A DNA stretch of 37,411 bases from NCBI GenBank assembly GCA_051010975.1, contig JBPCUV010000357.1, forward strand, positions 1 to 37,411, in the 5' to 3' direction. Of the stretch, positions 676 through 36,817 are shown piece by piece. Source of the stretch: Desulfocapsaceae bacterium. GTDB lineage: Bacteria > Desulfobacterota > Desulfobulbia > Desulfobulbales > Desulfocapsaceae. Each line of letters starts with the position of its first letter. Positions within the stretch are counted from its first letter, which is position 1. Below the pieces are notes generated by a model. That model was not told the origin of the DNA. It saw only the letters and a list, made by a program, of their open reading frames with translations, and did no database searches. The translations under genes were made by a program, and so were the position numbers.

Positions 676-939
676 TTTCTTACCTCTTTTATCTATGGTT
701 CAGTTGTTTGATGGTGAATGCCATCTCCATGCGTCACAAATTAGGCATGTGAATTTCGAGAGCAATGGGTAACAAAAAGTAGAATAACAATAGTAGATGC
801 TATCGTTATTAGGGCTTAGAACAATACAAATGAAATCAGTGATTAGTAGACAACCTTCTTCCTTACATGAATCTTGCGTCCCGGGTAGGGTGCTCTTATG
901 GTTAATCAAGACCTTAATTATACTGATAAAGGACAACAC

Positions 940-1752
940 ATGACTTTCATTCAATCCTCACTGGAGGAACACCTCATTACCGAACAACCCTTTTATTTGC
1001 CGGTCGGTGATGAAATAGACATAGCAATTGCAAGCTACGAACGAAAACTTCCATTGCTTTTGAAGGGTCCAACCGGTTGCGGCAAGACTCGTTTCATGCA
1101 ATTCCTGGCCTGGAAGTTGAGTCGTCCGCTGATCAATGTCTCCTGTCATGATGATCTATCAACCTCTGATCTGGTCGGCAGATATTTGGTCAAAGGGGAT
1201 GAGACGATCTGGGTTGACGGTCCTCTGACCCGTGCGGTACGAACCGGAGGGATATGTTATCTTGATGAGATCGTAGAGGCCAGGAAAGATACCACCGTGG
1301 TGATACATCCACTTGCAGATGATCGCCGGGAATTGCCCATCGACAAGCTGGGTCAGTTGCTCGTTGCCCCTGAACAGTTTATGCTCGGAGTCTCTTATAA
1401 TCCAGGCTATCAATCCGTTCTTAAGGATCTAAAAACATCAACCCGCCAGCGCTTTGTATCGCTTTCTTTTGTCTACCCCGAGGAAGATCTGGAAACCAGG
1501 ATCGTGGCAGAAGAAGCGGGGATCGATATGGACCTGGCCAGACGACTCGTTCGGTTGGGCACCATGAGCAGAGGGTTGAGGGAATCAGGTTTGCCTGAGG
1601 GCGCTTCAACACGACTGCTGATAAATGCAGGCTTGCTGATATCTTCGGGTATTGGTGCTCGTATTGCCTGTATGGTCGGGGTGGTCGAGAGTTTGACCGA
1701 TGATCCCGATCTACTCGGATCACTGGTTGAAATGGTTGATGCGGTGTTCTAG
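940..1752 (+). CDS. CbbQ/NorQ/NirQ-type MoxR-class AAA+ ATPase
   Basis: Walker A LLLKGPTGCGKTRF and Walker B ICYLDEIVEA. Length of about 270 aa and the N-terminal FYLPVGDEIDIAIASYE resemble CbbQ/NorQ. I prefer ATG 940 (AAAGGA about 7 nt upstream) to the track start at 898. Confidence 0.9.
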   Translation: MTFIQSSLEEHLITEQPFYLPVGDEIDIAIASYERKLPLLLKGPTGCGKTRFMQFLAWKLSRPLINVSCHDDLSTSDLVGRYLVKGDETIWVDGPLTRAVRTGGICYLDEIVEARKDTTVVIHPLADDRRELPIDKLGQLLVAPEQFMLGVSYNPGYQSVLKDLKTSTRQRFVSLSFVYPEEDLETRIVAEEAGIDMDLARRLVRLGTMSRGLRESGLPEGASTRLLINAGLLISSGIGARIACMVGVVESLTDDPDLLGSLVEMVDAVF

Positions 1753-1815
1753 TCCGCCCGTAGGTTTCCCTGAACTAGATTATCGAACAAATTTAGATAA
1801 ATATAGATTTCGGCG

Positions 1816-4092
1816 ATGGACAAAGAGGCACTAAAATCTAAATTCTATGAGCTTGTTTCTCCTTCTCATCCTAACGAGTGGGAAGTTGATGGTATCGTCG
1901 AAAAAATTGCTGAATTGCCCGCCTCCGCAAGAGAGTTGCTCTTCTCGCAGATACCCGTGATCTGGCCGGTAAGCAACAGCCTTTGTCTATCATTTCTCGA
2001 AGATGGCAGCCAGGTAATCGAAACTATTCCGAGCGATCTCATTCCCAAATGGGTGCGGGCCATACTCCGCCGCTACGAGCAGAAGGGACTGTCCAGCGCC
2101 AGAGGAGTAATCGTAGATGCCGGTCAACTATTTCTCACTCCACTGAGAAAAAGAAATTTGGTCCGTTTCGAGGATGTGCGAAAACGAATGCTTTTCTACC
2201 TGAGGGGAGTCTCCGGAGAAGACTTGGAGATCAGCCTGGATGCGTCTCCGCACACAAATACCTCAACTTTTTTTGTACCACCATCGATTTCTCTGTTGGA
2301 CAGCTACCAGAAAAACCAATTGCTCTATAAATTCCTGTTGACCTTGCACTGGGGGTTTTATCTGCTCGGTACTTTCAAAATCCGTCTCGAAACAGAGTCA
2401 AGTGAGAATCAGGCAACAGATCTTGGAAGTGAAGTTTCGATTCCACCGAGCTCGATAGCTGATTTCCTGTCCGGGTTCTACCATTCTGAATTGGCCGCTG
2501 ATATCTTTTTTCTGCTCGAGACGGGCAGGGTGATGCGCTGGTTGAGAGCTGATCTGCCAGGGTTGGCGAATGAATTCATCAAACTGAAGGTTGACCTGGA
2601 AGGAGCTCTTCACCGACCGGTCCATGACCTCACGGGTTCGAAACTTACCGAACTGGGAAACAGCATCCTCTTTGACCAGGAATTTCCACCCTGGATTACT
2701 CAGCAACTCGATTTACCAGATCTTTTGTCCACTTCGACCAGGGGTTTGGTTGAAATACTAAAGGAGCTTTATGGGCTCCTCGCAGGTACTGAAGAATCGT
2801 ATCAGCGGCCGCCGCTTCTTGAACTGCTCGGCAGACATGATTTTACCAAGGCGTCTGTTGAAATAGAAAGTAAACGCCTGGAAATGAAGAAGACATTTAT
2901 CCTGCACCTCCAGGCGCTTAGAGATAAGAACTTAGCTTCACTTCCTCAGCCAACCTCCCCAGGGGCGGATAATGACGCAGATCAGACAGTTGCCGTGATT
3001 ACTGAGACCAAGGCTGACTCATCGCCGTCACAATTACAGCAGATTTTGGACAACCCAGAAGTCGACGTACCGGAGGAACTGGTGAACATAATCAACCTGA
3101 TCAAGGAGGATCAGGGTCATATCCCGCCCAGCTATTTTTCTGCTGCGTCGGGAGTTTCTGGGGCTGGGTTCAGCCGACAGGAATCATCTGCAGATGTCAA
3201 GGGAGAGGGACTTGGGGGGCAGGAAGGTATTCTTCTGGATGAATGGGATTACCGGCGAAACGGCTATCGGAAGAATTGGTGCCAGATCCAGGAGAGAGAA
3301 ATGTCGCTTCTGCACTCCACGTTTGTTGACACGGCCCTTGATAAACATAGAGGGCTTTTGCTCAAGTTACGACGCCAGTTTGAGTTCATGAAGACCAACG
3401 AACATTTTGTAAGAAGGCAGCGAGAAGGAGACGATATCGACCTCGATGCCATTGTCGAAGCCAGAGGAGACCAGCGGGCAGGTATTAGTCCATCGAGCAA
3501 ACTGTTTGTAAGGCTGCAGAGAAACGAACGGGATATAGCTACCATCTTCCTTGTAGATATGTCAAATTCCACCGAGGGATGGGTGGGGACAGTGATAAAA
3601 GAGGCTCTGGTGCTGCTCTGTGAGGTCATGGATGTGGCCGGTGACCCATACGGTATTCTCGGGTTTTCAGGCATGCGCAGGTCCCGCTGTGATATCTACA
3701 GGATCAAAGATATTGAAGAGCCTTACAACAGGGAAATCCATCAGCGCATAAACTCGATTATGCCGCGCGAATACACCAGGATGGGACCGGCTCTGCGTTA
3801 CGCCTCAGATAAACTCAAGCATTACGAAGCCCGCACCAGGCTGCTGGTGACCATCACCGACGGCAAACCCGAAGATTACGACGATTACAAGGGCGATTAC
3901 GCCATCGAAGATACCAGAAAAGCCCTGATGGAAGCCCGGGGTATTGGTATCCACACATTCTGTATCACCGTTGACCGTGAAGCTCACGATTATCTGCCGC
4001 AGATGTTCGGCCGGGGCAACTATATTTTCATAGATGAAATTGATAAATTGCCAATGAGGATGATAGACATGTATCGACAGCTCACCAGTTGA
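1816..4092 (+). CDS. CbbO/NorD-like adaptor with a C-terminal von Willebrand factor A domain
   Basis: 758 aa, immediately downstream of the CbbQ-like ATPase. The C-terminal VWA domain has the MIDAS motif FLVDMSNSTEGW and ...LLVTITDGKPEDYDDY.... The size matches CbbO-type (about 750-770 aa) better than short NorD. Confidence 0.85.
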   Translation: MDKEALKSKFYELVSPSHPNEWEVDGIVEKIAELPASARELLFSQIPVIWPVSNSLCLSFLEDGSQVIETIPSDLIPKWVRAILRRYEQKGLSSARGVIVDAGQLFLTPLRKRNLVRFEDVRKRMLFYLRGVSGEDLEISLDASPHTNTSTFFVPPSISLLDSYQKNQLLYKFLLTLHWGFYLLGTFKIRLETESSENQATDLGSEVSIPPSSIADFLSGFYHSELAADIFFLLETGRVMRWLRADLPGLANEFIKLKVDLEGALHRPVHDLTGSKLTELGNSILFDQEFPPWITQQLDLPDLLSTSTRGLVEILKELYGLLAGTEESYQRPPLLELLGRHDFTKASVEIESKRLEMKKTFILHLQALRDKNLASLPQPTSPGADNDADQTVAVITETKADSSPSQLQQILDNPEVDVPEELVNIINLIKEDQGHIPPSYFSAASGVSGAGFSRQESSADVKGEGLGGQEGILLDEWDYRRNGYRKNWCQIQEREMSLLHSTFVDTALDKHRGLLLKLRRQFEFMKTNEHFVRRQREGDDIDLDAIVEARGDQRAGISPSSKLFVRLQRNERDIATIFLVDMSNSTEGWVGTVIKEALVLLCEVMDVAGDPYGILGFSGMRRSRCDIYRIKDIEEPYNREIHQRINSIMPREYTRMGPALRYASDKLKHYEARTRLLVTITDGKPEDYDDYKGDYAIEDTRKALMEARGIGIHTFCITVDREAHDYLPQMFGRGNYIFIDEIDKLPMRMIDMYRQLTS

Positions 4093-20474: not shown

Positions 20475-21884
20475 TCAGTCTATTTTTTTTACAATCTGAG
20501 CAAGCGCGTCATCTTCTCCGACATTTCCGGGGAATACGATATAGGTCATACCTGGATAACGGGTTTCTTTACCGCACCGCCAGGCCGGAACACCCGGCAG
20601 AGCTTGACCGATTACCATTGCCCTCTTGATGCCTAGCGCCTTGGTGGCGATATCACTTGAAGTAATACCTCCCTTGGCAACCAGATAGCGCGGTTGACTT
20701 GTTATGTTGCTGACGATTTCCACCAGACTTTCAGAAACGATCCGACCGATTTCCAGGCTGGAGGCAGCATCACTGCCGGTAACGAGCGATCTGCTGGTAT
20801 ATATTGCCGCGTCTGCACCCGAACCAAGTGTCTGATTGGTAAGTGAGATGACTCGATCAATCTCAGACCTTCTATTGTCTTCATCGAGAAGTTCATCTAC
20901 CTGTACTTCGATGGCTTCAATTTCGGTGAGATCAAAGAGTGCACTGACTTGTGATGTAGTTTTCGGCACATAGGAACCAATAACGAACAGTCCTCCGTGG
21001 GCGCTGGGAGTCACCAGTTTTTCGCCGGACAACAGACCGTCTCCCGCATCTAAGCCGATTCGAGATCTGACGAAGGAGGCGGCAGTCCGATACAAGAATT
21101 CATAGCCTTCATTCTCAACCTTTATCAGGGCTGCGACCACCACTTCCATATCCCTGTAGCTGGCAGCGTTGATAAAGCAGGCGGCCCCTCTGGGAACAGA
21201 TCTGAAGATGTCGGCAACCTTGTCAGGCCCACCCACTCTGATGTCCTGCAGGCTTACTGCTATAACTTCTTCGGCTTTAATTTTTCCGCCGGTCTTTTCT
21301 TCGATATAGTTCTTCAGATTTGAATTAATAAAACCAAAGGCAGCATCTTTGGCGAACGGTGTCAGGGCTGCAGGAACCAGTGAGTCCCTCTCTTTGACAT
21401 AATGGATATCGTTAAGCGTATAGCGCCCGCCTTCAAGGAAGAACGGAACGATAAGATAGGGAAGTTGGTCTTTTTTAAGAGCTCGAGCAGAAACATCTAC
21501 CTCTGAGGGAAAATGGCCTCGCAGCGTAGAGTCGCTTCGGCTTATCACTACCACACGAACTCCTGAATTTTCTGAAGCCTGATAGAGATTTTCTCCTATT
21601 TCACGGGCCAGCTCACAGGCTGCATCCTCGGGCAGACTTCTGCTGTTTGTCAGAATGAAGAAGGCCGGGAAATCGCCTGATAATTCTGCTTCAAGGGCAG
21701 CCACCGACCAGGTCGTCAATACGGGAATGTCCCGCACCGTCTGTGTACCTGTAGGGTCATCGTCGAGCACGACAACTTTATAGGTCGATTGACCAAGCTC
21801 TTGCTGAATTCTGGGTAGCAGGTCCGTCTGCCACTCGGGCGGCAGGGTGTCAAGATAGCTTATATCAATGGTTGGTTCGCTCAT
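20475..21884 (-). CDS. Four-carbon acid-sugar kinase family protein (DUF1537; OtnK/DtnK family)
   Basis: N-terminal VVVLDDDPTGTQTV motif, and C-terminal LVAKGGITSSDIA...GVPAW...IVFPGNVGEDDAL. The length of 469 aa is typical. Confidence 0.9.
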   Translation of the reverse strand: MSEPTIDISYLDTLPPEWQTDLLPRIQQELGQSTYKVVVLDDDPTGTQTVRDIPVLTTWSVAALEAELSGDFPAFFILTNSRSLPEDAACELAREIGENLYQASENSGVRVVVISRSDSTLRGHFPSEVDVSARALKKDQLPYLIVPFFLEGGRYTLNDIHYVKERDSLVPAALTPFAKDAAFGFINSNLKNYIEEKTGGKIKAEEVIAVSLQDIRVGGPDKVADIFRSVPRGAACFINAASYRDMEVVVAALIKVENEGYEFLYRTAASFVRSRIGLDAGDGLLSGEKLVTPSAHGGLFVIGSYVPKTTSQVSALFDLTEIEAIEVQVDELLDEDNRRSEIDRVISLTNQTLGSGADAAIYTSRSLVTGSDAASSLEIGRIVSESLVEIVSNITSQPRYLVAKGGITSSDIATKALGIKRAMVIGQALPGVPAWRCGKETRYPGMTYIVFPGNVGEDDALAQIVKKID

Positions 21885-21893
21885 GTGTTTGAT

Positions 21894-22859
21894 TTATTTG
21901 AGTGAGAAAATGTTTTGTTCGATGAACTTCCAGGTTTCGATATAATCACCTTTGGCCATCAATAATTCCAGTTCGGCTACCTCGATTTGGTCAAACAGCT
22001 GCCAGATCTTTGTCGTAAGTCTGCTGTTTGCCTCGAAGGTTCCTCTGATATCCCACCTTGTCGGAGAGGTATCGGAAGTGAAATAGTCATTGTAGTTGTA
22101 CTTCTTCAGGTAATAGAGGAATTCAACGTAATCGAGGAAGTGCTTGGTGCCGCAGAAATAGTCCCAATCCCACTTGCCGTCATTATCGTTGATGTGGATG
22201 TAGTATTTATAGGGACTGGCCTCAAGCAGGGAGACTGCCTCGGCCGGGTTTTCGCTGCCGTACATGGAGTGTCCAAAATCAAGGGTCACGCCCATGTCGT
22301 CGATCTTGATATCATTGAGCAGACAAAGCGCCTTGGCGGCGGTATCGACAAAGCACCTGCCCCTTGTCTCGCTGGGCTTGTATTCAACGTATAGAGGTAT
22401 TTCCCTGCGGTAGTCTCCCGCTTCCGAGAAGGTCTCGATCAAGTGTTTCCAGGCCAGCGCGTAGTCGTTCTGGAAGGCAAATTCGTAACCGTCGCCCAGT
22501 GGACAGCAGGTAACCTTGTCGGCTCCAATATCCGCGGCAAAGTCTTTTGCATTTTTAATGAACTGGACAGCTTTTTCCCTGACCACCTTCTCGAGTGAGG
22601 TTACACCGCCGTTGCGAAATTCCGGTTCGGCCTTGACATTGACATTTACGGCAGCCACATCGAGATTGTATTTTTCAAGCGCCGATCTGGTCTCCTGGAC
22701 GTCGTTCACTTCATACGGATAAACAACTTCTACTCCGCTGTATCCTTCGATATTAGATAAAAGGGAGAACTTTTCATCAAGGGTAAGCGGCTTATTATAC
22801 TCGTGAAAACGATCTTTTGTTTGTGATAGAAAGCTCGTGATAATTGCCAGTTTCAGCAT
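21894..22859 (-). CDS. Xylose-isomerase-like TIM-barrel sugar isomerase/epimerase
   Basis: VEYKPSETRGRCF (compare the XylA EPKP.EP motif), DFGHSMYGSENPAE and IHINDNDG are metal-site motifs of the AP_endonuc_2/xylose-isomerase-like fold. Confidence 0.85.
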   Translation of the reverse strand: MLKLAIITSFLSQTKDRFHEYNKPLTLDEKFSLLSNIEGYSGVEVVYPYEVNDVQETRSALEKYNLDVAAVNVNVKAEPEFRNGGVTSLEKVVREKAVQFIKNAKDFAADIGADKVTCCPLGDGYEFAFQNDYALAWKHLIETFSEAGDYRREIPLYVEYKPSETRGRCFVDTAAKALCLLNDIKIDDMGVTLDFGHSMYGSENPAEAVSLLEASPYKYYIHINDNDGKWDWDYFCGTKHFLDYVEFLYYLKKYNYNDYFTSDTSPTRWDIRGTFEANSRLTTKIWQLFDQIEVAELELLMAKGDYIETWKFIEQNIFSLK

Positions 22860-22885
22860 GGTTGATCTCCTAATTGTTTCTCGGC

Positions 22886-24418
22886 TTAACTTACGGTTAA
22901 ATTTTTAAATATTTTCGCCTTGAACTTGGCGATCAGTCGTTTGTACCATCCGAACTGACTCAGGACGGTAAGGACGATAATGATGAAAAGAATCAATGAG
23001 ACGGGTCTGGTGATTACCGGCATAAAACTGCCCTGGGAGACCATCAGTGCCCGGCGCAGATTCTCATCGGCCATGGGTCCCAGGATTACGCCGATTACCA
23101 GCGGGGCGATCGGGTAGCCCATATTGGTGAGGAAATAGCAAATAATGCCTACCGGCAGCATCAGGTAAAGATTGAAAATATTCAAACCTAGTGAGTATGA
23201 GCCGATGATGCAAAGCACTCCAATGATTGGCATAAAGAGCGGGGTAGGTATATTCAATACCTTAACCACCTGCTTGGCCAGAATCATACCGGTGATCCAC
23301 ATGGCCATTGAGGCAAGCAGTAGAATTGCAGCTACCTCAAGAATGAAAGTTGGATGCTCAAAACTCATCATTGGGCCCGGCGTAACTCCATGAAGCATCA
23401 GCGCCCCCAGCAGCATTGCTGCAGGAGGACTGCCTGGAATACCCAAGTTCAGAAGCGGAATCATGGCCCCGCCGACACAGGCGTTATTGGCGGTCTCACT
23501 GGCAATAACGCCTTTAAGTTCGCCGGTACCGAAGGTTTCGGGATGTTTGGACGTGTTTTTGGCAGTGCCGTAGGAGACCCAGCCGGCAATATCTTCACCG
23601 ATACCGGGGACGGCGCCGATACCCACACCGATTAGAGCGGAGCGGATGATGGCCGGAATGTTTTTTAAAACAGTGCCTATCTCGGGGATGATGCGCTGTA
23701 ACTTCTTCGCTTTCGGCATAGTGGTCCTAGATCTGAGCACATCGATGATCTGAGGTATACCGAACGCACCAATCAGCACGGGTACCACCTCGATACCACT
23801 CTCAAGTTGGCTGATTCCGAAGGTGAACCGAGGGAAGAACTGAAGTTGATCTCGACCGATGCAGGCCAGAAAGAGTCCGAGAAACCCAGCAATCCAGCCC
23901 TTTATTACCAGATCCGGTGCGGTCAGGGTTCCGCTGATAAGAATACCGAAAAATGCCAGCAGGAAAAACTCAAAGGAGGTAAATTCCAGGGCGAAATTCG
24001 AAATCAACGGTGAGATGCTGACAACGAACAGCATACTGACCATCGTGCCAATGGCGGAGGCGGTAGTGGTCAAGCCGATTGCCCGGCCTCCTTCTCCTTT
24101 TACTGCCAGAGGGTAGCCGTCCATCGCTGTTGCCGCTGCGGCGGCGGTACCGGGAATGTTGATCAGGATAGACGCATAGGAGCCACCGTAAGTTCCACCG
24201 ACGTATATGGCAAGCAGACAGATCATCGCCATCGGTGTATCCATCGAGTAAGTAAGAGCAGTTAGAAGGGCGACACCGAGAGTCGACGTAAGGCCGGGCA
24301 TGGCCCCGAAAAGAATACCCAGCAGTACCGAGCCGAATAAAACAGCAAGGGAAACAGGATCGGTCACCATGCCGCCGGCGATTTCGAAAAATGTTTGGAT
24401 TCTCTCTATAAAGACCAT
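22886..24418 (-). CDS. tctA: Tripartite tricarboxylate transporter (TTT) large permease
   Basis: 510 aa and polytopic. GAMPGLTSTLGVALL...GGTYGGSYASILINIPGTAAAAAT...LNLGIPGSPPAAMLLGALMLHGVTPGP are typical TctA motifs. Confidence 0.9.
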   Translation of the reverse strand: MVFIERIQTFFEIAGGMVTDPVSLAVLFGSVLLGILFGAMPGLTSTLGVALLTALTYSMDTPMAMICLLAIYVGGTYGGSYASILINIPGTAAAAATAMDGYPLAVKGEGGRAIGLTTTASAIGTMVSMLFVVSISPLISNFALEFTSFEFFLLAFFGILISGTLTAPDLVIKGWIAGFLGLFLACIGRDQLQFFPRFTFGISQLESGIEVVPVLIGAFGIPQIIDVLRSRTTMPKAKKLQRIIPEIGTVLKNIPAIIRSALIGVGIGAVPGIGEDIAGWVSYGTAKNTSKHPETFGTGELKGVIASETANNACVGGAMIPLLNLGIPGSPPAAMLLGALMLHGVTPGPMMSFEHPTFILEVAAILLLASMAMWITGMILAKQVVKVLNIPTPLFMPIIGVLCIIGSYSLGLNIFNLYLMLPVGIICYFLTNMGYPIAPLVIGVILGPMADENLRRALMVSQGSFMPVITRPVSLILFIIIVLTVLSQFGWYKRLIAKFKAKIFKNLTVS

Positions 24419-24433
24419 TGTCTAAGCCTCCTT

Positions 24434-25201
24434 TTACGACCAGATTTCAGCATACCAGATCGCATCAAGCAGGCTGACTACGAGGCCCTCATGCGGCATC
24501 GGGACCAGCAGGAAGTATTTAAAAGTGACGCCGATGGTAAAAGGAGCGATGAATCCAATCAACAGGCTAAGTTTATATTTAGGCATCAACTCGGCATCTT
24601 TAGCTATTTTGTAATAGTGAAAAATCAACCAGACGGTGAAGACAATCACTAGAATATCTGAGGAAAAGAAAGCGAAGGTGTCAATTTTATCTGCCAGTCC
24701 GGTAGTAATAAACACAGTGAGAATGACAGCACCGATAATGATCTGATAAATCAATGCGACTATTCCCTCATCACCACCGCAATAAAACATGAAGAAAAAC
24801 ACAAGAAGAAAGATTGTCGCCGCCAGAAAAAAATCGATCTGCGGGATGAGAATGAAAACGAAGACGAAAAGATTCAGAACGATACCATAAAACCTTATGG
24901 TGACCGGCTGCTTAAGAAAATCTGCAAAGTCTGAACTGCCAAGATATTTTAATACTGATTTTACCCCAACCACACCTACTTCTCTTAAAGCCGTGCGAAT
25001 AAGCAAGAGGCCAAGAAGAGCAAGAATACTACCTATTAGTAGAGGAAACAGTGCGGGAGATACGTACCAGACGTTCTGGACACCCGCGTAGCTGTCTTTC
25101 ATGGGCATCTGAAAGGCCTCATAGACAGAATAGATGCCCAGGCAAAGAATTGCCGTGCCCGAGAAAATATCGGCTTTTCTCAGTTTTTCAATTTCAATCA
25201 T
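24434..25201 (-). CDS. tctB: TTT small membrane subunit, TctB-like but unusually long (about 255 aa)
   Basis: It lies between tctC and tctA. Its N-terminus, KADIFSGTAILCLGIYSVYEAFQMP, resembles TctB, and extra TM helices follow. The start is uncertain: ATG 25201 is preferred, ATG 25258 is possible. Confidence 0.65.
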   Translation of the reverse strand: MIEIEKLRKADIFSGTAILCLGIYSVYEAFQMPMKDSYAGVQNVWYVSPALFPLLIGSILALLGLLLIRTALREVGVVGVKSVLKYLGSSDFADFLKQPVTIRFYGIVLNLFVFVFILIPQIDFFLAATIFLLVFFFMFYCGGDEGIVALIYQIIIGAVILTVFITTGLADKIDTFAFFSSDILVIVFTVWLIFHYYKIAKDAELMPKYKLSLLIGFIAPFTIGVTFKYFLLVPMPHEGLVVSLLDAIWYAEIWS

Positions 25202-25316
25202 GACGAATTGGTTCGAATAGTAAATAAGGCCGGGCATGTACCCATTGCTGATTGGCAATGCCCGGCCTAAGAGTCGATATCTTTAGATATCTAGGCTGTA
25301 AAATTGATACGCCGGA

Positions 25317-26321
25317 CTACGGTTTGGGAATTCCAAGTGTATCCGGGCTGACTTTAGCTGCACCAAGCTCATGCAGGGTCCAGGCGAAATTGGACTGCAG
25401 GGCTGCGAAGATCTTGCGAGATTCTTCGCCGGTTGCACCAGACAGCAGGTAGTAGTTCTCTTTAGCCCAGGTCTTAACCTTATCGGTTGCGATAGCCTTG
25501 TTGAAGGCATCGATGAGTACATCTTTTGCTTCTTGAGGTACGTCATTCGGTACCGCAAAACCGATGGCCTGCGAAATCGGCAGGTACTCCGAGAGGCCCG
25601 GGTAGGCATCGAAACCTGACGGAATCGAACCGAGACCCTCTACTTCGAAGGCATCCGGAATCAGCATCGCCAGAGGCGTAAGCTTGCCACCGCGAAGAAG
25701 CTGTTGTTGCTCGGCAAGAGAAGTTACCACTACGGTGACTTCACCGGCCATTGCTGCATTCTGGCTCGGTGCTGAACCTTTGTAGGGGATGAAATTGAAC
25801 TTAGCACCGGAACCTTTTTCCAGGGCAAGCAGATTCAGATGATGGATCGAACCAGCGCCACTCGCTGCCGCCTTGATGGAGCCCGGATCTTTTTTGGCTG
25901 CTTCCACGAGATCCTTGAGGGTCTTGTAAGGAGCATTTGCGGTGACCGAAATAAGATCAGGGGAACCGCCAACGATGAAGGGGTCCCAGACGTCGAAGTT
26001 TTTGTCCCAGCCGCCCTGCACACCAGCGGTGACATTTGACTCGGACAAACCGGTAAGTGTGTATCCGTCGTGGTCTTGGCTGAATCCATGGGTCATGCCG
26101 ACAGAACCGGCAACGCCACCGGTCTTGTTGATAACGTTGACGTTCACACCAAGAAACGGGGCCATTTCTGCAGAAATGATGCGATTACAGGTATCGGTAC
26201 CCCCGCCTGCGCCCCAGACAACTACGTTGGTTATATTTCTGCTGGGAAATTTCTTTGCTGCATAGGCACTGCAGGACAGTGTCAGAAAAACTGCCATGGC
26301 GATAAGTAAAATTCTTCTCAT
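25317..26321 (-). CDS. tctC: TTT periplasmic substrate-binding protein (Bug/TctC family)
   Basis: Signal peptide, then FPSRNITNVVVWGAGGGTDTCNRIISAEMAPFLGVNVNVINKTGGVAGSVG, the canonical Bug-family N-terminal motif. SD GGGAGG. Confidence 0.9.
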   Translation of the reverse strand: MRRILLIAMAVFLTLSCSAYAAKKFPSRNITNVVVWGAGGGTDTCNRIISAEMAPFLGVNVNVINKTGGVAGSVGMTHGFSQDHDGYTLTGLSESNVTAGVQGGWDKNFDVWDPFIVGGSPDLISVTANAPYKTLKDLVEAAKKDPGSIKAAASGAGSIHHLNLLALEKGSGAKFNFIPYKGSAPSQNAAMAGEVTVVVTSLAEQQQLLRGGKLTPLAMLIPDAFEVEGLGSIPSGFDAYPGLSEYLPISQAIGFAVPNDVPQEAKDVLIDAFNKAIATDKVKTWAKENYYLLSGATGEESRKIFAALQSNFAWTLHELGAAKVSPDTLGIPKP

Positions 26322-26410
26322 TACAACCTCCCATTGTAGTAGTTAATGGTACGTGAATTGATTATTTGTTCTTTTAGATTCGAGAACCTCGCAACAGCTT
26401 TACTTCCGTT

Positions 26411-27103
26411 TTACCGGTTGTTCACCTCCTTCCGCAAAGATTTGTCTGATTGTATCTCTTCGATGAGTGTTGCAGCGGTTGTTTGCAAATGAAATCGCAT
26501 TGCCTCCTCAGCTGCTATAGGATCGTGACTGCATATCGCCTCGATGATGTCGATATGCTCCTGGATTGTCTCGTTCGGGGTACGTATCAAACCCTCTCTG
26601 GTGGGATAGAGGTAGGCCAGCGAGACAATATTATAGGTTTGTAGAATTGAACTCAGAAATTCGCGCGAGCTTATTTCAGCGAGCAAATTGTGAAATTTTC
26701 TGTCAGCTACAGAGTAGGCTTGGTAATCGGTAATGTTGCTGACTTTGGCAAAGGGAGCGAAAATATTTCTGAGTTGCGTACACTGTGCAGCGGTTATGGA
26801 GTGGGCCGCTCTTCGAGCTGACAAACCCTCGAGAACTTCGCGGATCTCAAAAATCGAGACAAGTTCCTCCAATGAAAAAAGCCTGACAAAAAATCCCCGA
26901 CGCGGCTTAGTCTCAATAAGTTTTTCCTGCTCCAGAAATTTTAAGGCACTGATTAAAGGGGTTCGGCTTATGCCTAGATCTGCAGCGAGTTTTTCCTGTG
27001 GAATTTTCTCACCTGGTTTAAGCTCACGATTCTCAATCATATCCTTTATGATCTGATAGGCTTTTTGATCGAGATTAGTGGATGTGATCAGTGGTTTTTT
27101 CAT
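26411..27103 (-). CDS. GntR-family transcriptional regulator (FadR/FCD subfamily)
   Basis: The winged HTH is KAYQIIKDMIENRELKPGEKIPQEKLAADLGISRTPLISALKFLEQEKLIETKPRRGFFV, followed by an all-helical FCD-type C-terminus. I prefer ATG 27103 (MKKPLITS...) to 27151. Confidence 0.9.
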   Translation of the reverse strand: MKKPLITSTNLDQKAYQIIKDMIENRELKPGEKIPQEKLAADLGISRTPLISALKFLEQEKLIETKPRRGFFVRLFSLEELVSIFEIREVLEGLSARRAAHSITAAQCTQLRNIFAPFAKVSNITDYQAYSVADRKFHNLLAEISSREFLSSILQTYNIVSLAYLYPTREGLIRTPNETIQEHIDIIEAICSHDPIAAEEAMRFHLQTTAATLIEEIQSDKSLRKEVNNR

Positions 27104-27134
27104 GGTGAGATCCAGGCCGAAGAGCCATTGAATA

Positions 27135-27144
27135 TTGTATACAA
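27135..27144. promoter_or_regulatory. Perfect palindrome TTGTATACAA, candidate GntR-family operator
   Basis: It matches the GT-N-AC palindromic core used by FadR-subfamily GntR regulators. It sits about 30-40 nt upstream of the GntR ATG (27103) in the divergent promoter region and is flanked by AATATT on both sides. Confidence 0.4.
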
Positions 27145-27325
27145 AAAGCAATATTAGAATTTCTGGTAAATGTCAATTCTTTTTTATATGTTTGCTTTAA
27201 AATAGATTGTCTGGACTTTTGATATTTTAAAATAATGTTTAATTACAGTAATTTAAATATTTAATTAAACAGCATCGCCTCGGTTCACAGCAGTCACTAA
27301 TACGGTGACAGGTTCAAGTCAAAGG

Positions 27326-28850: not shown

Positions 28851-29963
28851 TTAATGTTCAAGTTTCTTGAAACGGTGCATAAACCTTCTATCGATATAAT
28901 CTTTGATCATGAAAGCCAGGCGACCGGTAAATCTGATCGATCCTTTGAGAAAAATGCCATGCGCGTCTCCGGTATTGTAGATGAGAAGATATTTTTTCCC
29001 AGGCTCAAAACCCTGCAGTTTCTCTCCGCGAAGACTTGCTCTAATGTTGTGGAGCAGTACCGGGTTTTGCCTGACCGCATAAACCCCAACTTTGTCCAGC
29101 GGTTGCTCAGAAAAGTGTATGCAGTCACCACCTCCAAAAATTTCCGGGTGTTTGGTCGACTGCAGGTAACGATTTACCTCTAAACCAATTCCGTTTCCAA
29201 CACTAAGGCCGGAGTTGGCGAACAGGGGCGAAGGTTCAACTCCAAGGGCTGCAAAGATAAGGTTGAACGTATAATTATTTCCGTTGACAAGGCTCACTGT
29301 ACCATCCTGCACGGATGATACATAGGACCCCTCGGAAAGCTCAATTCGGCGACTGAAGAGAATTTGCTGCGCATTCTTCTGCAGCCATGGCGTGGAGTCG
29401 GCTAATAATCTTCGGCCGCTGAAGAGTATGATTTTCAGTTCATACCCTTTAATACGATCACCAAGTTGTCTGAGGTTTCCCGCTATCTCCAGGGCCGAGG
29501 GACCACCACCGATAACGGCTATTGATAGATTCGAAGATTTCAGCCGAGTTGAAATAATTTTCCGGGCCCGCGCCAATCCCTCAATTGGCTTGACCGGTAT
29601 GACGCTATCAATGTTTTCTGAGATAGTCCTGACGGGTACCGAGGATCCGGTGTTGCAACTGAGAAGATCGTAGGGCAGGGTGACACCGCTGAAGAGTCTC
29701 ACGGTTCGGTTCTGAGCATCGATGCTCACGGCTCGGTCTTTAACAAAAATTCCGCCCTGCCTCTCTACAATCCTGAGGGTATTAAATCTCACCTGGTCAG
29801 GCTCATAAGTCCCTCCAAGCATTCCAGGACCCATACCTGAATAATAATGATGATCGGCAGGCTGGACGACCGTGACCTCATGCCCCTCTTCAGCAAACTG
29901 CCGCAGGTTGGCTAGAATCGTCAAGTGGGCGTGGCCGCCCCCCAGTAAGACCAGCTTTGACAA
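28851..29963 (-). CDS. FAD-dependent pyridine-nucleotide-disulfide oxidoreductase family protein (NDH-2/SQR-like)
   Basis: The N-terminal dinucleotide fold is KLVLLGGGHAHLTIL. A second fold is LSIAVIGGGPSALEIAGNL. It also has ...IFGGGDCIHF. It starts 17 nt after the PNPOx-like gene ends. Confidence 0.8.
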   Translation of the reverse strand: MSKLVLLGGGHAHLTILANLRQFAEEGHEVTVVQPADHHYYSGMGPGMLGGTYEPDQVRFNTLRIVERQGGIFVKDRAVSIDAQNRTVRLFSGVTLPYDLLSCNTGSSVPVRTISENIDSVIPVKPIEGLARARKIISTRLKSSNLSIAVIGGGPSALEIAGNLRQLGDRIKGYELKIILFSGRRLLADSTPWLQKNAQQILFSRRIELSEGSYVSSVQDGTVSLVNGNNYTFNLIFAALGVEPSPLFANSGLSVGNGIGLEVNRYLQSTKHPEIFGGGDCIHFSEQPLDKVGVYAVRQNPVLLHNIRASLRGEKLQGFEPGKKYLLIYNTGDAHGIFLKGSIRFTGRLAFMIKDYIDRRFMHRFKKLEH

Positions 29964-29980: not shown

Positions 29981-30403
29981 TTACTTAACCCACACTTCGG
30001 GTTCAAAAGATCCCGGTGTGATATATTCAATCCTGTATGGCTGAACCAGGACGATGCAGTAGTTGGGATCGTCGGGACCTTTGAATATAGGGGCCAGCAG
30101 GTCATTCCAGAAATTATGCCGCTCATCGTGGTCGGTGGTTATTTCCGCTTGCCCCTGGACCTGAATATAGGGGTGCATGTCCATAAAATTGTTGACACCA
30201 AGGGTAATATGGACATTGGGGTTGTGTTGCATCTGAGCCACTTTGCGTGAATGAGCAAAAGTTGCACAGCGCATGTTGAAATCGCCGTCACCGACAGTCA
30301 CCACATAACGAACCCAGGGGTTATTCTGTTCTGTAACAGTAGCCAGTGCAGCAAGCTGAGGTTTATGTATGACATCAAGAATTCTTTGTTTCAAATCTTC
30401 CAT
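29981..30403 (-). CDS. Pyridoxamine-5'-phosphate-oxidase-family (split-barrel, FMN/F420-binding-like) protein
   Basis: MEDLKQRILDVIHKPQLAALATVTEQNNPWVRYV... is a general-stress-protein-26-like pattern. ATG 30403 is preceded by GGAG. The track start at 30415 is a TTG. Confidence 0.8.
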   Translation of the reverse strand: MEDLKQRILDVIHKPQLAALATVTEQNNPWVRYVVTVGDGDFNMRCATFAHSRKVAQMQHNPNVHITLGVNNFMDMHPYIQVQGQAEITTDHDERHNFWNDLLAPIFKGPDDPNYCIVLVQPYRIEYITPGSFEPEVWVK

Positions 30404-30652
30404 GGGCCACTCCAACTACGTTGTTTTTTTGACGCGATCTCGTCAGAATTTCAGATTTGCTTCTACAATTCATAACAGGTTAATCATTGTCTCCTGAAGG
30501 TGTAGAAAAAATAATCGGTCGAGCAATAAACTCAAACAAACTCTTTCTTCACTTCAATTTACAGCTTTTGCGCAGATGATTACTTTGAAGCAAGATGCTG
30601 CGATGCAGGCTGGCGACTAACGCTGTCCTAAAACTTAATCGGGAGGTAAACG

Positions 30653-30976
30653 ATGTCATCGGTTGCACTTATTGAAGCACATGATGCCTTTGAGCATGTC
30701 AAGAATAATGGTGCTCTTTTAATCTGCGCTTATGAAAGTGATGAGAAATTCCACAAGCTCCACCTCGATGGTGCGATTCCCCTGAGTGAATTCCAGTCCC
30801 TGTCAGATACCATGACTAAAGACAAAGAGCTGATTTTCTACTGAGCATGACCTGGAGGAGGTTCCGCTGCCGGTCGGGCAGAACATTATAGAACCGAAGG
30901 ATTCATCAATGCCAAAGCACTCAGGGATGGGTTCAAGGGCTGGCAGAAAGCAGGCCTGCCGATAACCGTTGAGTGA
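30653..30976 (+). CDS. Single-domain rhodanese-like sulfurtransferase with two in-frame UGA codons (30842-30844 and 30848-30850), a candidate selenoprotein (…LIFY-U-A-U-PGGGSAAGRA…)
   Basis: SD GGGAGG (30641-30646). The track ORF stops at TGA 30842. The same frame then reads GCA, TGA and 41 sense codons: PGGGSAAGRAEHYRTEGFINAKALRDGFKGWQKAGLPITVE, then a stop at 30974-30976. N- and C-terminal parts together make one complete ~107-aa rhodanese fold (…HLDGAIPL…, …GF.NAKAL.DGFKGWQKAGLP). The UGAs sit at the C-x-C-P active-site positions. Confidence 0.7.
30860..30895 (+). other. SECIS-like stem-loop downstream of the two UGA codons
   Basis: The upper stem is CTGCC (30867-30871) / GGCAG (30877-30881) with apical loop GGTCG. 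The lower pairing is GGTTC (30860-30864) / GAACC (30891-30895), with an asymmetric internal loop. The apical loop starts 27 and 21 nt after the two UGAs and begins with GG, as in bacterial SECIS elements. The stem is short and I did not compute folding energy. Confidence 0.45.
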
Positions 30977-32473: not shown

Positions 32474-35400
32474 TCAATGCAGCATCCTGCTGTGATCTTG
32501 AGCTTTAGCGGAATGGATAAAGAAATCCAACCGGTTTTGAAGGTTGACATCACTATTGCCTGCATCCATGTCGAGGTTAAGGAAATTGAGATCCGGAAAC
32601 AACCGGGAGAGTTTAGAACCGATGCCTTTTGAGACGACGTGATTGGCAATACAGCCGAATGGCTGAAGACTAATAATGTTGCGAATGCCTGATTCTGCCA
32701 TGGAGATAACTTCTCCCGGTAGCAGCCACCCCTCACCGGCCTGATTGACAAGGCTGACTACTCTACTCGCCTGGTTACCCAGTGCATCGGGGACACTGAT
32801 GGGGTCGAGCGAGTGCCTGAATTGTGACATCAAGCCGTTTACCTCTCTGACTCTGCTGATCACTATTCGGTGCAGTAAATTCTGGGTTTTTCTTTCGACA
32901 TATTTGGATTTTTCAATATTGTTGCTGTGGTTGAAGGAAATGTTGACGAAAGTCTGCGTAAAAAAGGTGAGCAGCGGGGGCACTACCACTTCGATACCCC
33001 TCCGCATTAGTCTTTCGACAATATTGCTGTTACTGAAAGGATTATATTTTACATATATCTCACCGACCAGTCCGGCTCTTGGATAGTCGTGGACGTAAGT
33101 GGCTATCGAGTTAAATTCTTCGATGGCATCCCCGAGCAGTTTCTGGCGCTGTCGTAAGGTCCAACTGCCAACATTCTGTCGAGCAATGTCAATATGTCTC
33201 TTCAAAACGGCCAGTGCTTCTCCGCTTTTTCGCTCTCTCACAGCAGTTGCATGGTACATGCGTACCAATTGATCTGCCACCAACAGTGAGGAGAGGACCA
33301 GAGAGATAAGCTGTAATCTGTTGACCCGAAATCCCGGTTGATCGTTGGAACGAAATTTTTTAAAGGAGGCGGTAATTACAGGGATATCGCCAAATCCTGC
33401 ATTGATTAACCCTTTTTTTATCAGACTATGGTAGTTGGTAGCACGGCATTGTCCTCCGGTTTCGGTGAAGGAGGCTGCAACTTTGTCCCTGTCATAGAGG
33501 CCAGATTTCATAGCTTTTATGATGTCGCCGACGGTGATAATCGCAGGGTAGCAAATGTCGTTGTTGGTGTATTTTAGGCCAAACCTGATCGATTCCTTAT
33601 CAGGAGGAGGGAGTATCTCCACCTGATAACCCAGTGGGACGAGAGATGACTGGGCAAAAAGAGAATAGACAGGTGAAAAATCAGGAAAGAGTATCGTGCG
33701 GTTACGGTCTTCGTCTTTATACAACGGAAGCACTTTCCGGACAGTCTTTTTGGTTTCAGTAGCTGGGGCAGTTTTGGATTCAACCAGTGACCTTACCCGA
33801 AGCCTTGCCGAACCGATACTTGTTATCTCATCGATCTTGAGGACGACCGGAGTCTTGGAATAGGTACTCAGAATAGCCTTGATTTCGTCGATGATTACCG
33901 CATCCGGGCCGCAGCCGAATGAATTGAGCTGGATGAATTCAGCCAGCGGTTCGACTCCGGTCCACTGGGCTGCCCGGTATAAACGATTGGAATATTCCCA
34001 TTGATCAACGACCTGTAGATTTTCAGAGGTTTGAATGGTGTCAAGAGGCAGTGAGTCTTCGGTCAGAACATGAAGCCCCATGGCGGCAATCATTTCAGCA
34101 ATGTTGTGGTTGATCATCGGATCAACATGGTAGGGTCGGCCGCCGAGGACGATCAGCTGCTGGCCAGCGGCCCTCGCAGAAGCAATTACTTCCTCACCTT
34201 TATCCCTGATCGTTTTTCTGAAGTCCTGCTGCACTTCAAGGGCCTGACCAAAAGCCAGATCGAAAATTGACTTTTCAATACCAAACGAACGCAGATAGTC
34301 GATACACCCTTTACGCAGTTGTCCGACTTCTAAAAAGTTTATCAATGGACTGTCCATCTGTACGCCCTGTCCTGATGGATCGATTGCACAATCTATGACA
34401 TCAGGGTAGCCGGTAACTATCGGACAATTGTATTGATTGGCAGAATCTGCAAATTGCGACTGTTCGTAGGTGACCCGCGGATAGAATATGCGGTCTACAC
34501 CACGCTTGATAAGGTCAAAAATATGGGCATGGGCAAGTTTTGCCGGATAACAGATATTGTCCGACATCACGGTGAAAGCGCTCTCTTTCAAAATTTTCGA
34601 TTCAGAAACGCGTGAACGGATAAGCCGAAAACCTACTCCGCTGAACAAAGTTGCCCAGAACGGATAGTTTTCCCAATTGTTGAGAACCATAGGCAGGCCA
34701 ATACTCAGAATCGGTTCTGCAGATTCACTATCAGGGAAACTTTCAAGCAGAGAAAGCTTTTCTGCGACCAGGTTACGGCCGGGATGGCTGGATCGGTTTC
34801 TATTGCTGAAAATCCGTTCGCAGCGATTGCCAGTATGGAATTTCCTGGCATTGGAAAAATGAACGCTTTGAATCAGACAGTGATTGGTACATCCCTGGCA
34901 TTTCGTTTGGGTTGTCTTATTTGAAATACATTTTGAAAGAAGTTCGGAAGGTACGGCTTCCATGCTTGTTGAGCTTAGTTTTCTTCTTTCTCTGGCAATC
35001 AGTGCTGCGCCATAGGCACCCATGTACTCGGCGATGTCCGGGCGAATGACTTCTATGCCAAGCAGTTTTTCGAAAGCCCGAAGTACCGCGGGGTTTTTAA
35101 ACGTACCTCCCTGAACGACCACTTTGGGTCCAAGAGCAGAAACGTCGGAGATGCGGAGTACTTTGTTCAAACAGTTTTGAATGACCGAATACGACAATCC
35201 CGCTGCCACATCAGAAACATCATTGCCTTGACGCAGCGCCTGTTTCACGCAGGAGTTCATAAAGACGGTGCACCTGCTGCCCAGGTCCACAGGGTGCTTG
35301 GCAAAACAGGCGAGCTCACCAAACTCTTCAGGGGAATGCCCCAGTGCGTCACCAAAGGTTTCGATAAAAGAACCGCACCCCGAAGAGCAGGACTCGTTCA

Positions 35401-36817
35401 CTTCAATATCCTCTACCTTGTCATTGGCTACGAAGACTGCTTTCATGTCCTGGCCGCCAATGTCGAGAATGAACGAAACATCAGGTTCAAATTCTCTTGC
35501 AGCACGATAGTGAGCAAGTGTTTCTACGATCCCGACATCGAATGCGAATGCAGACTTTACCAGATCTTCGCCATAGCCGGTAACTGCCGCTCCGTTTATG
35601 GTAAACTTCTGAGCCATAGGCTGAAACGCTTCTTCCAGTTTCTGCAGCCCGATGCGGACCTTGGCCAGGGGATCTCCGCGATTGCCTGAGTAATATTTAA
35701 ACACTATTTGACCCTGCCCATCGATGGCCACCAATTTGGTAGTAGTGGAGCCGGCATCTATGCCGAGATAGACACTGCTGGTTGCCGCTTGGGAGAGTGG
35801 AACTGATGCTACCTTTGATGATGACTTGTGGTCAAACCATGACAGAAACTCGGTGCGATTCGAGAAAAGTGGCGGATGGTATTCGGATCTGTGAGACTTG
35901 CCAATCTTATTATTTAGATTATCAATGAGTTCTTCTAGGGTGAAGCTATCATCTGTTTGATGATCAATGCTCAGCGCCGCTCCGTAGGCAGCATAAAGTA
36001 ACGACTCGGAAGGAATGACAACGGCTTCTTCAGTGAGATTCAAAACATCGAGAAGGGCATCACGCAGAGTTTCGAAAAAGTAGAGTGGTCCGCCGGTAAA
36101 CATAACCGGTCCTTCTATTCTTCGGCCTCTGGCCAAAGAGGTAACCACCTGGCAGGCCACCGCCTTGAATACAGATCTTGCGATATCGCTCTTTTCGGCT
36201 CCGGTATTGATCAAATTCTGGACATCGGTTTTGGCGAAAACGCCGCATCTGGAGGCAATGACGTGCTCATATTTACTTTTGTGGGCTGTTTCGTCCAGCA
36301 TGTCCAAGGGAACATCGAGCAATGACGACATCTGATCGATAAATGCACCGGTTCCGCCGGCGCAATTGCCATTCATCCTCATGTCCGGCCTTAAACAATG
36401 GTCGAAGAAAATCATTTTACAGTCTTCACCGCCGATATCGATCAGCATCCGACAATCCGGTCGACACTTCCGGACGGCTTCTGACTGGGCTACGACTTCC
36501 TGGATGAATCCAATTCCCGTTTGTTCAGCCAGCCCCATTCCGGCCGAACCGGTGAATATCGGATATAGTTCAATAATTCCGGCTGCCTTTTGAAGATCAA
36601 CAAGCATGGAGAGCAGGGTGGTGAGTACTTCTGCCTGATGTCGAAGATAGCGCTGAAAAATGATGGTGCCCGAGGGGTCGATCAGCACCAGTTTGGCCGT
36701 AGTAGACCCTAGGTCCATGCCGAGATGACAACCATGGAGGGGGCGGGAGGACAGATCTGTGGTGTGGTCTTGCAGATACATGATTGATCCAGAGTCCTTG
36801 ACAGTTTTGGTGTCCAC
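32474..36817 (-). CDS. Giant fusion protein: two tandem HgdC/BcrAD-BadFG-type ATPase (activase) domains plus two C-terminal DUF2229-like 2-hydroxyacyl-CoA-dehydratase-related domains
   Basis: Domain 1 has GMDLGSTTAKLVLID, DIGGEDCK, NGNCAGGTGAFID and ASRCGVFAKTDV. Domain 2 has LGIDAGSTTTKLVAID, DIGGQDMK, NESCSSGCGSFIE and GSRCTVFMNSCV. A Cys-rich linker CQGCTNHC...NRCE follows, then about 800 aa of dehydratase-related sequence. The start is uncertain: GTG 36817 or ATG 36781. Confidence 0.85.
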   Translation of the reverse strand: MDTKTVKDSGSIMYLQDHTTDLSSRPLHGCHLGMDLGSTTAKLVLIDPSGTIIFQRYLRHQAEVLTTLLSMLVDLQKAAGIIELYPIFTGSAGMGLAEQTGIGFIQEVVAQSEAVRKCRPDCRMLIDIGGEDCKMIFFDHCLRPDMRMNGNCAGGTGAFIDQMSSLLDVPLDMLDETAHKSKYEHVIASRCGVFAKTDVQNLINTGAEKSDIARSVFKAVACQVVTSLARGRRIEGPVMFTGGPLYFFETLRDALLDVLNLTEEAVVIPSESLLYAAYGAALSIDHQTDDSFTLEELIDNLNNKIGKSHRSEYHPPLFSNRTEFLSWFDHKSSSKVASVPLSQAATSSVYLGIDAGSTTTKLVAIDGQGQIVFKYYSGNRGDPLAKVRIGLQKLEEAFQPMAQKFTINGAAVTGYGEDLVKSAFAFDVGIVETLAHYRAAREFEPDVSFILDIGGQDMKAVFVANDKVEDIEVNESCSSGCGSFIETFGDALGHSPEEFGELACFAKHPVDLGSRCTVFMNSCVKQALRQGNDVSDVAAGLSYSVIQNCLNKVLRISDVSALGPKVVVQGGTFKNPAVLRAFEKLLGIEVIRPDIAEYMGAYGAALIARERRKLSSTSMEAVPSELLSKCISNKTTQTKCQGCTNHCLIQSVHFSNARKFHTGNRCERIFSNRNRSSHPGRNLVAEKLSLLESFPDSESAEPILSIGLPMVLNNWENYPFWATLFSGVGFRLIRSRVSESKILKESAFTVMSDNICYPAKLAHAHIFDLIKRGVDRIFYPRVTYEQSQFADSANQYNCPIVTGYPDVIDCAIDPSGQGVQMDSPLINFLEVGQLRKGCIDYLRSFGIEKSIFDLAFGQALEVQQDFRKTIRDKGEEVIASARAAGQQLIVLGGRPYHVDPMINHNIAEMIAAMGLHVLTEDSLPLDTIQTSENLQVVDQWEYSNRLYRAAQWTGVEPLAEFIQLNSFGCGPDAVIIDEIKAILSTYSKTPVVLKIDEITSIGSARLRVRSLVESKTAPATETKKTVRKVLPLYKDEDRNRTILFPDFSPVYSLFAQSSLVPLGYQVEILPPPDKESIRFGLKYTNNDICYPAIITVGDIIKAMKSGLYDRDKVAASFTETGGQCRATNYHSLIKKGLINAGFGDIPVITASFKKFRSNDQPGFRVNRLQLISLVLSSLLVADQLVRMYHATAVRERKSGEALAVLKRHIDIARQNVGSWTLRQRQKLLGDAIEEFNSIATYVHDYPRAGLVGEIYVKYNPFSNSNIVERLMRRGIEVVVPPLLTFFTQTFVNISFNHSNNIEKSKYVERKTQNLLHRIVISRVREVNGLMSQFRHSLDPISVPDALGNQASRVVSLVNQAGEGWLLPGEVISMAESGIRNIISLQPFGCIANHVVSKGIGSKLSRLFPDLNFLNLDMDAGNSDVNLQNRLDFFIHSAKAQDHSRMLH

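Follow-up and report, generated by a model that had tools for sequence, protein, structure and literature searches.

A predicted Sec-Ala-Sec rhodanese selenoprotein gene with two in-frame UGA codons in a Desulfocapsaceae bacterium

Introduction

Rhodanese-related sulfurtransferases that carry selenocysteine (Sec, U) have been described in several forms. The U-x-U form was found by comparative genomics in delta-proteobacterial symbionts of Olavius algarvensis and presented as a single new form (Zhang and Gladyshev 2007; PMC1976440), and this was the sole paper our literature search found tying U-x-U to a rhodanese selenoprotein. The C-x-U form stands in current catalogues as 'COG0607 form 2' (PMC9312934) and, with one Sec, as 'form 3, NF041203' (PMC13188914). 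Other bacterial proteins with two Sec residues are catalogued as well. Among them TsoB (NF045694, UxxxxU) also has a rhodanese domain, but it is a rhodanese/DsbD fusion-like protein (the NF045694 profile has 572 positions) with a different spacing between the Sec residues. The E. coli rhodaneses GlpE, PspE and YgaP resemble the protein considered here in fold, in size and in their strand-loop-helix active site, but each has a single catalytic Cys and lacks both Sec and a second chalcogen at a distance of two residues.

Insertion of Sec at a UGA codon in bacteria is associated with a small in-frame hairpin 3' of the codon, as in the E. coli fdhF-type SECIS with its GGUC apical loop. The published consensus for bacterial SECIS elements (bSECIS) has a loop of 3-9 nt with a G in its first two positions, a stem of 4-16 bp, a distance of 16-37 nt from the UGA and an energy of <= -7.5 kcal/mol (PMC13188914).

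Here we analyse a gene in a window of 37,411 nucleotides, by which we mean the whole stretch of DNA examined, from a Desulfocapsaceae bacterium. The first-pass annotation of this window proposed a rhodanese with two Sec residues and knew of no tandem U-x-U active site; on this last point it was mistaken, in view of the form published in 2007 (PMC1976440). With U-x-U known since then and C-x-U in the catalogues, the locus opens no new category. What we add is modest: U-x-U is common in the sampled family, appears to have arisen repeatedly, and shares a covarying candidate SECIS with C-x-U.

Results and discussion

The candidate gene lies on the plus strand at 30653-30976 and is preceded by a strong Shine-Dalgarno sequence (GGGAGG, 30641-30646), 6 nt 5' of the ATG. 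From the ATG at 30653 the frame runs through 63 codons (MSSVALIEAHDAFEHVKNNGALLICAYESDEKFHKLHLDGAIPLSEFQSLSDTMTKDKELIFY) to a TGA (30842-30844), followed by GCA and a second TGA (30848-30850). The 41 sense codons 3' of the second UGA (PGGGSAAGRAEHYRTEGFINAKALRDGFKGWQKAGLPITVE) are closed by a third TGA (30974-30976), which translation marks as the true terminator and whose counterparts in the family are a mixture of TGA, TAA and TAG. The junction reads ...KELIFY-TGA-GCA-TGA-PGGGSAAGRA...ITVE-TGA, and a mechanical list of open reading frames stops the peptide at 63 aa. In a Pfam search with Cys substituted for U, the joined product matched Rhodanese (PF00581) at 31 bits, above the cut-off (22.2), and neither half alone gave a match. 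The coordinates that the first-pass annotation gave for the frame were exactly right; it had also noted the ribosome-binding site, and had proposed that the halves are not domains by themselves but form one rhodanese of about 107 aa when joined, as the Pfam search now confirms. With Sec at residues 64 and 66, translation, Pfam and 160 homologous loci predict a single-domain protein of 107 residues carrying U64-A65-U66. TGA is also the stop codon of 11 of the 26 Pfam-supported ORFs in the window, as well as of the rhodanese gene itself, which argues that UGA has not been reassigned in this organism.

A search at the protein level yielded some 40 homologues, extending to 44% identity, nearly all of which are exactly 63 residues (ending ...LIFY) or 65 residues (ending ...IFYCA) long. 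One of them, P0012, is a full-length Cys form (IIFYCACPHDESS), and a second search seeded with it brought in dozens of full-length forms with the consensus FYCACPHDE, in which the first Cys is nearly invariant. Most full-length Cys forms read FYCACP, so that both UGA columns are Cys in these homologues, the question on which the first-pass annotation had wished the alignment to be judged. Public entries for the family are 63- or 65-residue proteins named 'hypothetical protein' or 'ArsR family transcriptional regulator'. A few other database entries are full-length 'CAW' forms, where the actual codon is TGA and the gene caller rendered it as Trp; proteins P0152, P0154 and P0161 and loci L164 and L165 are examples of such truncated or 'CAW' annotations.

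We confirmed at least 652 relatives in two collections (308 genome contigs and at least 344 metagenome contigs), and recognising the family would restore a widespread small selenoprotein to annotation. For a survey of the two codons we drew 160 loci from this set, half of them (80) from GTDB genomes and half (80) from metagenomes. Position 2, the signature Sec position of the family, was TGA in 159 of 160 loci and TGC in the remaining one (L131). Position 1 had a Cys codon (TGC or TGT) in 135 loci and TGA in the other 25, giving a U-x-U frequency of 16%. Neither TAA nor TAG occurred at either position in any of the 160 loci, and the Sec-x-Cys combination was not found among them. When whole genes were reconstructed (n = 159; 158 related loci and the window), every internal in-frame stop was TGA (184/184), and the terminal stops of the same genes were divided among TGA (64), TAA (53) and TAG (42). 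A decaying pseudogene had been expected to show other stops at other positions; this pattern, with no frameshift, speaks against decay.

Within the group of U-x-U genes to which the window belongs (nine members; 58-83% identity), 39 codons downstream of the UGAs are open in all members. For L001, for example, we counted 7 synonymous and 4 non-synonymous codon differences over these 39 codons, against 19 and 11 in the 5' part. Within the group, the mix 3' of the UGAs resembles that of the 5' part, as would be seen in one intact coding sequence.

To place the two positions in a structure we used the Cys homologue P0012, which is 46% identical to the window protein. In its AlphaFold2 model (pLDDT 77) strands and helices alternate as in rhodaneses, and the C67-A-C69-P-H-D loop lies between a strand (63-66) and a helix (73-85). 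Foldseek comparison of this model with the PDB returned only rhodanese domains as top matches (TM 0.6-0.7), among them 3tp9, the rhodanese domains of the CoA-disulfide reductase 3icr and of the persulfide reductase 3nt6, 6mxv and YgaP. Since the Cys pair of the model sits in the strand-to-helix loop, both Sec positions of the window protein would lie at the entrance of the active-site loop, consistent with the earlier proposal that the UGAs fall in the catalytic loop.

The alignments conflict over which position is equivalent to the canonical catalytic Cys. A phmmer alignment to 6mxv sets position 2 on the Cys of CGSGFRS, and the residues past position 2 in the Cys form (CPHDESS) match GlpE CYHGNSS without a gap. 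Conversely, in the alignments by hhalign to GlpE and by phmmer to YgaP it is position 1 that falls on the catalytic Cys, and a two-residue gap has to be introduced. On these alignments the equivalent could be either position 1 or position 2. A third Cys, C25 (30725-30727), belongs to the motif LL[IV]CAY (LLICAY in the window, residues 22-27) and is invariant across the Sec and Cys forms; the usual D-V-R strand motif of rhodaneses is replaced in this family by the invariant C-A-Y. Cys25 may lie near both Sec positions and be a third participant in the chemistry.

The window protein has both features by which the literature delimits the CxU/UxU rhodanese class, a COG0607/PF00581 domain and a CxU or UxU motif. 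Its best NCBIfam match was NF041203 (rhodanese_LYCAU, rhodanese-related (seleno)protein), with which it shares the Sec position, a single rhodanese domain and the likeness to a Y-C-A-U motif; the family consensus is FYCAU and the window reads FYUAU, with Sec for Cys at the first position. Membership of NF041203 was nevertheless ruled out, as the scores, 50.4 bits for the window protein and 41-71 bits for ten members of the family, fall short of the curated cut-off (115). We therefore regard the FYCAU/FYUAU family of about 105 residues as a sister group of NF041203. The TsoB profile NF045694 matched the family weakly over its active-site half (14-23 bits; cut-off 805).

Downstream of the two UGAs, the sequence CUGCC-GGUCG-GGCAG (30867-30881) forms a predicted bacterial SECIS core hairpin, which lies in frame and codes for A-A-G-R-A. 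Its loop starts 21 nt past the second UGA and 27 nt past the first, at exactly the position that the first-pass annotation had given. With a 5-nt GGUCG loop, a 5-bp stem, these two distances and an energy of -8.9 kcal/mol, the hairpin agrees with the bSECIS consensus throughout. The SECIS-like spacing and GG-initiated loop proposed earlier therefore hold against the published description, and we found the register to be conserved and the stem to covary, as set out below.

The energy calculations were divided. The 19-nt hairpin folded alone gave the -8.9 kcal/mol (z = -2.2), whereas single-sequence folding of 59-75 nt around the UGAs was no better than shuffled sequences (z = 0.05 to 0.55); the RNA-folding check suggested for 30842-30900 thus favours the hairpin taken by itself and fails for the wider region. 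A de novo RNAalifold run on the family alignment produced a weak four-pair structure in which the hairpin was not recovered, and we therefore tested the hairpin as a named structure. Rfam searched over the window at gathering thresholds gave no match. As the folding energy of the wide region was not significant, the support for the hairpin is comparative and not thermodynamic.

In 150 sequences, the 66 nt surrounding the motif gave an ungapped alignment (A2). At least five contiguous pairs enclosing a 5-nt loop were present in the same register as in the window in 140 of 152 distinct sequences; the loop was GGUCA, GGUCG or GGUCU in 121 of these, and 21 stem combinations occurred. Paired cells made up 86% in the named structure as opposed to 26-48% when the 3' arm was slid by 1-3 columns, and each of the inner five pairs was formed in at least 96%. 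The covariation score was 0.327 compared with 0.157 for shuffled alignments, and none of 500 shuffles reached 0.327. At A2 columns 33/45 we counted UA 95, CG 35 and GC 6 and, at columns 36/42, CG 128, UA 9 and AU 8. These compensatory changes sit at the third codon positions of both Ala codons, which are synonymous sites, so that constraint on the protein does not explain them.

The hairpin also follows the presence of an in-frame UGA. U-x-U and C-x-U genes do not differ in the hairpin or in its placement, with a mean of ~5.8-5.9 pairs each. In three distinct Cys-form genes (L131, L161, L162/L163) it was absent from this register, with 0-2 pairs and other loops, and the Cys-form proteins lack (S/T)AAG(R/Q)A, the peptide that the hairpin encodes. 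We considered an alternative helix between C-UGA-CC (30846-30852), which contains the second UGA, and GGUCAGG (30872-30878), the hairpin loop extended by two bases; these are A2 columns 11-17 and 37-43. We rejected it as an effect of composition because its pairing over the 150 sequences (84%) equalled that of the shuffled control and so gave no covariation; the complementarity probably follows from the presence of Sec-Pro and of the GGUC loop.

A single SECIS could plausibly act on both UGAs, at 21 and 27 nt, and this is the economical reading. The window element is like the fdhF-type SECIS and the bSECIS model in being a small in-frame hairpin with a GGUC apical loop 3' of a UGA, and the loop presumably resembles that of the E. 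coli fdhF SECIS itself. It differs in that one hairpin must here serve two UGAs 6 nt apart, and a conserved lower stem or bulged U was not found in this family. The gene is a convenient small system for asking whether a single bacterial SECIS can act on two UGAs so close together.

We then asked how U-x-U is distributed over the family. A neighbour-joining tree was built from 154 conceptual proteins; by Fitch parsimony, position 1 changed between Cys and Sec about 10 times on it, and the root state was Cys. To check this without recourse to the tree, we grouped the U-x-U sequences at 60% identity and obtained nine groups, each of which is closer to some C-x-U sequence than to any other U-x-U group. 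The identity to the nearest C-x-U versus the nearest other U-x-U sequence was 0.80 versus 0.58 for L101, 0.69 versus 0.48 for L067, and 0.79 versus 0.58 for a nine-member group from soil. The U-x-U relatives of the window (L001-L006, L081, L082) are metagenome-assembled genomes labelled Desulfofustis, Desulfobulbaceae or delta proteobacterium, and one further U-x-U group carries a taxonomic label, Nitrospira (L074). These comparisons suggest about nine separate origins of U-x-U from C-x-U, a figure that is an estimate because a tree from ~105 residues is poorly resolved. The order of forms was likely CxC, then CxU, then UxU, a natural series in which the contribution of a second selenium could be studied.

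The U-x-U form of 2007 is deltaproteobacterial, as is the Desulfofustis-like group of the window, and the two are compared here by description (PMC1976440). Whereas that paper describes a single new form, U-x-U is found here in 25 of 160 loci and about nine groups.

Taken together, the codon survey, the hairpin, the coding pattern and the genetic-code test support the view already taken in the first-pass annotation, of a Sec-Ala-Sec rhodanese cut short by ORF callers. We put a probability of roughly 0.85 on 30653-30976 being a single unbroken gene whose product, a rhodanese of one domain and 107 residues, has Sec64-Ala65-Sec66 where its active-site loop begins, a judgement reached from sequence comparison.

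One competing explanation accepts Sec at the second position but has the first UGA read through without SelB, by a near-cognate tRNA for Cys or Trp, giving C/W-A-U as the product. The additional 6 nt between the hairpin and the first UGA, compared with the second and family-wide position, would suit such a reading, as would the results of our searches for Sec machinery: selA, selB, selD and tRNA-Sec were absent from the 37-kb window and from the flanks of 60 loci (L001-L060), Pfam annotation of 28 ORFs in the window showed no Sec machinery or other selenoprotein genes, and ARAGORN detected no tRNA in the window and no tRNA-Sec on the 60 related loci. We infer the Sec trait of the organism. A crude scan for a UGA followed by a hairpin gave three matches only, which we judged from their coordinates to be due to chance. 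Against near-cognate decoding, TGY is one base away and would encode Cys efficiently, yet TGA has been fixed at position 1 repeatedly, in about nine groups, which argues that TGA codes for something other than Cys. The spacing of the first UGA is also inside the published bSECIS range (PMC13188914), and the published precedent reads position 1 as a second Sec (PMC1976440). We consider this explanation very improbable.

Alternatively, only the second UGA might encode Sec, the first acting as a terminator, so that the U-x-U genes would be inactivated and decaying. The hairpin is indeed placed as in the C-x-U forms, that is, for the second UGA, and gene callers do stop the protein at 63 aa. But TGA at position 1 recurs in 25 loci and nine groups, each nearest to a C-x-U form, TAA and TAG never occur there, and no frameshift or further stop follows 3'. 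Moreover, the 39 downstream codons remain open throughout the window's nine-member group with synonymous and non-synonymous changes in proportions like those upstream, and a spacing of 27 nt falls within the 16-37 nt of bSECIS elements (PMC13188914). We regard inactivation as very improbable. A sequencing or assembly artefact, or reassignment of UGA to a standard amino acid, would account for the bare presence of in-frame stops and nothing further, and is effectively refuted by the recurrence of TGA-GCN-TGA in 25 independent assemblies and by the ordinary role of TGA as a terminator, both in 11 of the 26 ORFs with Pfam support in the window and in the rhodanese gene.

If both UGAs do encode Sec, a mechanism can be sketched. 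SelB with Sec-tRNA(Sec) would bind the single hairpin at 30867-30881 and recode the first UGA, 27 nt 5' of the loop, and then, two codons on, the second, at 21 nt. The product would be a rhodanese of chalcogen transfer or redox function, in which the always-Sec residue at position 2 would carry or attack sulfane sulfur or selenium and form a covalent S/Se adduct. This adduct would be resolved by the Cys or Sec two residues away, with formation of an intramolecular Se-S bond, or of an Se-Se bond for the window gene, and Cys25 of LLICAY may take part as a third residue. The first-pass annotation had suggested a selenenyl-selenide or perselenide relay. The Sec-x-Sec centre could then run a cycle by way of an intramolecular diselenide or act as a perselenide carrier, and the rise of U-x-U from Cys-x-Sec in about nine groups would mean that it confers a specific advantage. 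The combination of two SelB-dependent insertions from one hairpin with such a centre and such an advantage is a tentative proposal drawn from sequence, and in its entirety we think it rather unlikely. Were it true, U-x-U could mark, for example, a selenium-trafficking rhodanese or a persulfide-reducing one of very low potential.

The gene stands alone on the plus strand, and the flanking genes are all on the minus strand. Upstream lie a PNPOx-like gene, divergent from the rhodanese gene (29981-30415), and an oxidoreductase of the Pyr_redox_2 (pyridine nucleotide-disulfide oxidoreductase) family of 370 residues (28851-29963), and downstream lies a DAO-family FAD oxidoreductase. Clustering of the ORFs within 5 kb of all loci revealed no partner conserved beyond the Desulfofustis-like group; PNPOx-like and ThiD homologues occurred near the gene only in these relatives, and a conserved Pyr_redox_2 cluster was not recovered among the loci clustered. 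A functional tie of the Pyr_redox_2 or PNPOx-like gene to the rhodanese is possible but unsupported.

Other parts of the window hold genes of separate interest. At 32474-36817 (minus strand), a single ORF of 1447 residues contains two BadF/BadG/BcrA/BcrD-type ATPase domains and a DUF2229 'CoA enzyme activase' domain. The region 20475-27151 (minus strand) encodes a GntR/FCD regulator followed by a TctCBA tripartite tricarboxylate transporter and a xylose-isomerase-like TIM-barrel protein, together with a four-carbon acid sugar kinase-like protein (SBD_N/NBD_C); these genes look like one acid-sugar catabolic operon. Lastly, a MoxR/CbbQ-VWA pair occupies 898-4092 on the plus strand: an AAA+ ATPase of the CbbQ/NirQ/NorQ type and, after it, a von Willebrand factor A protein of 758 residues.
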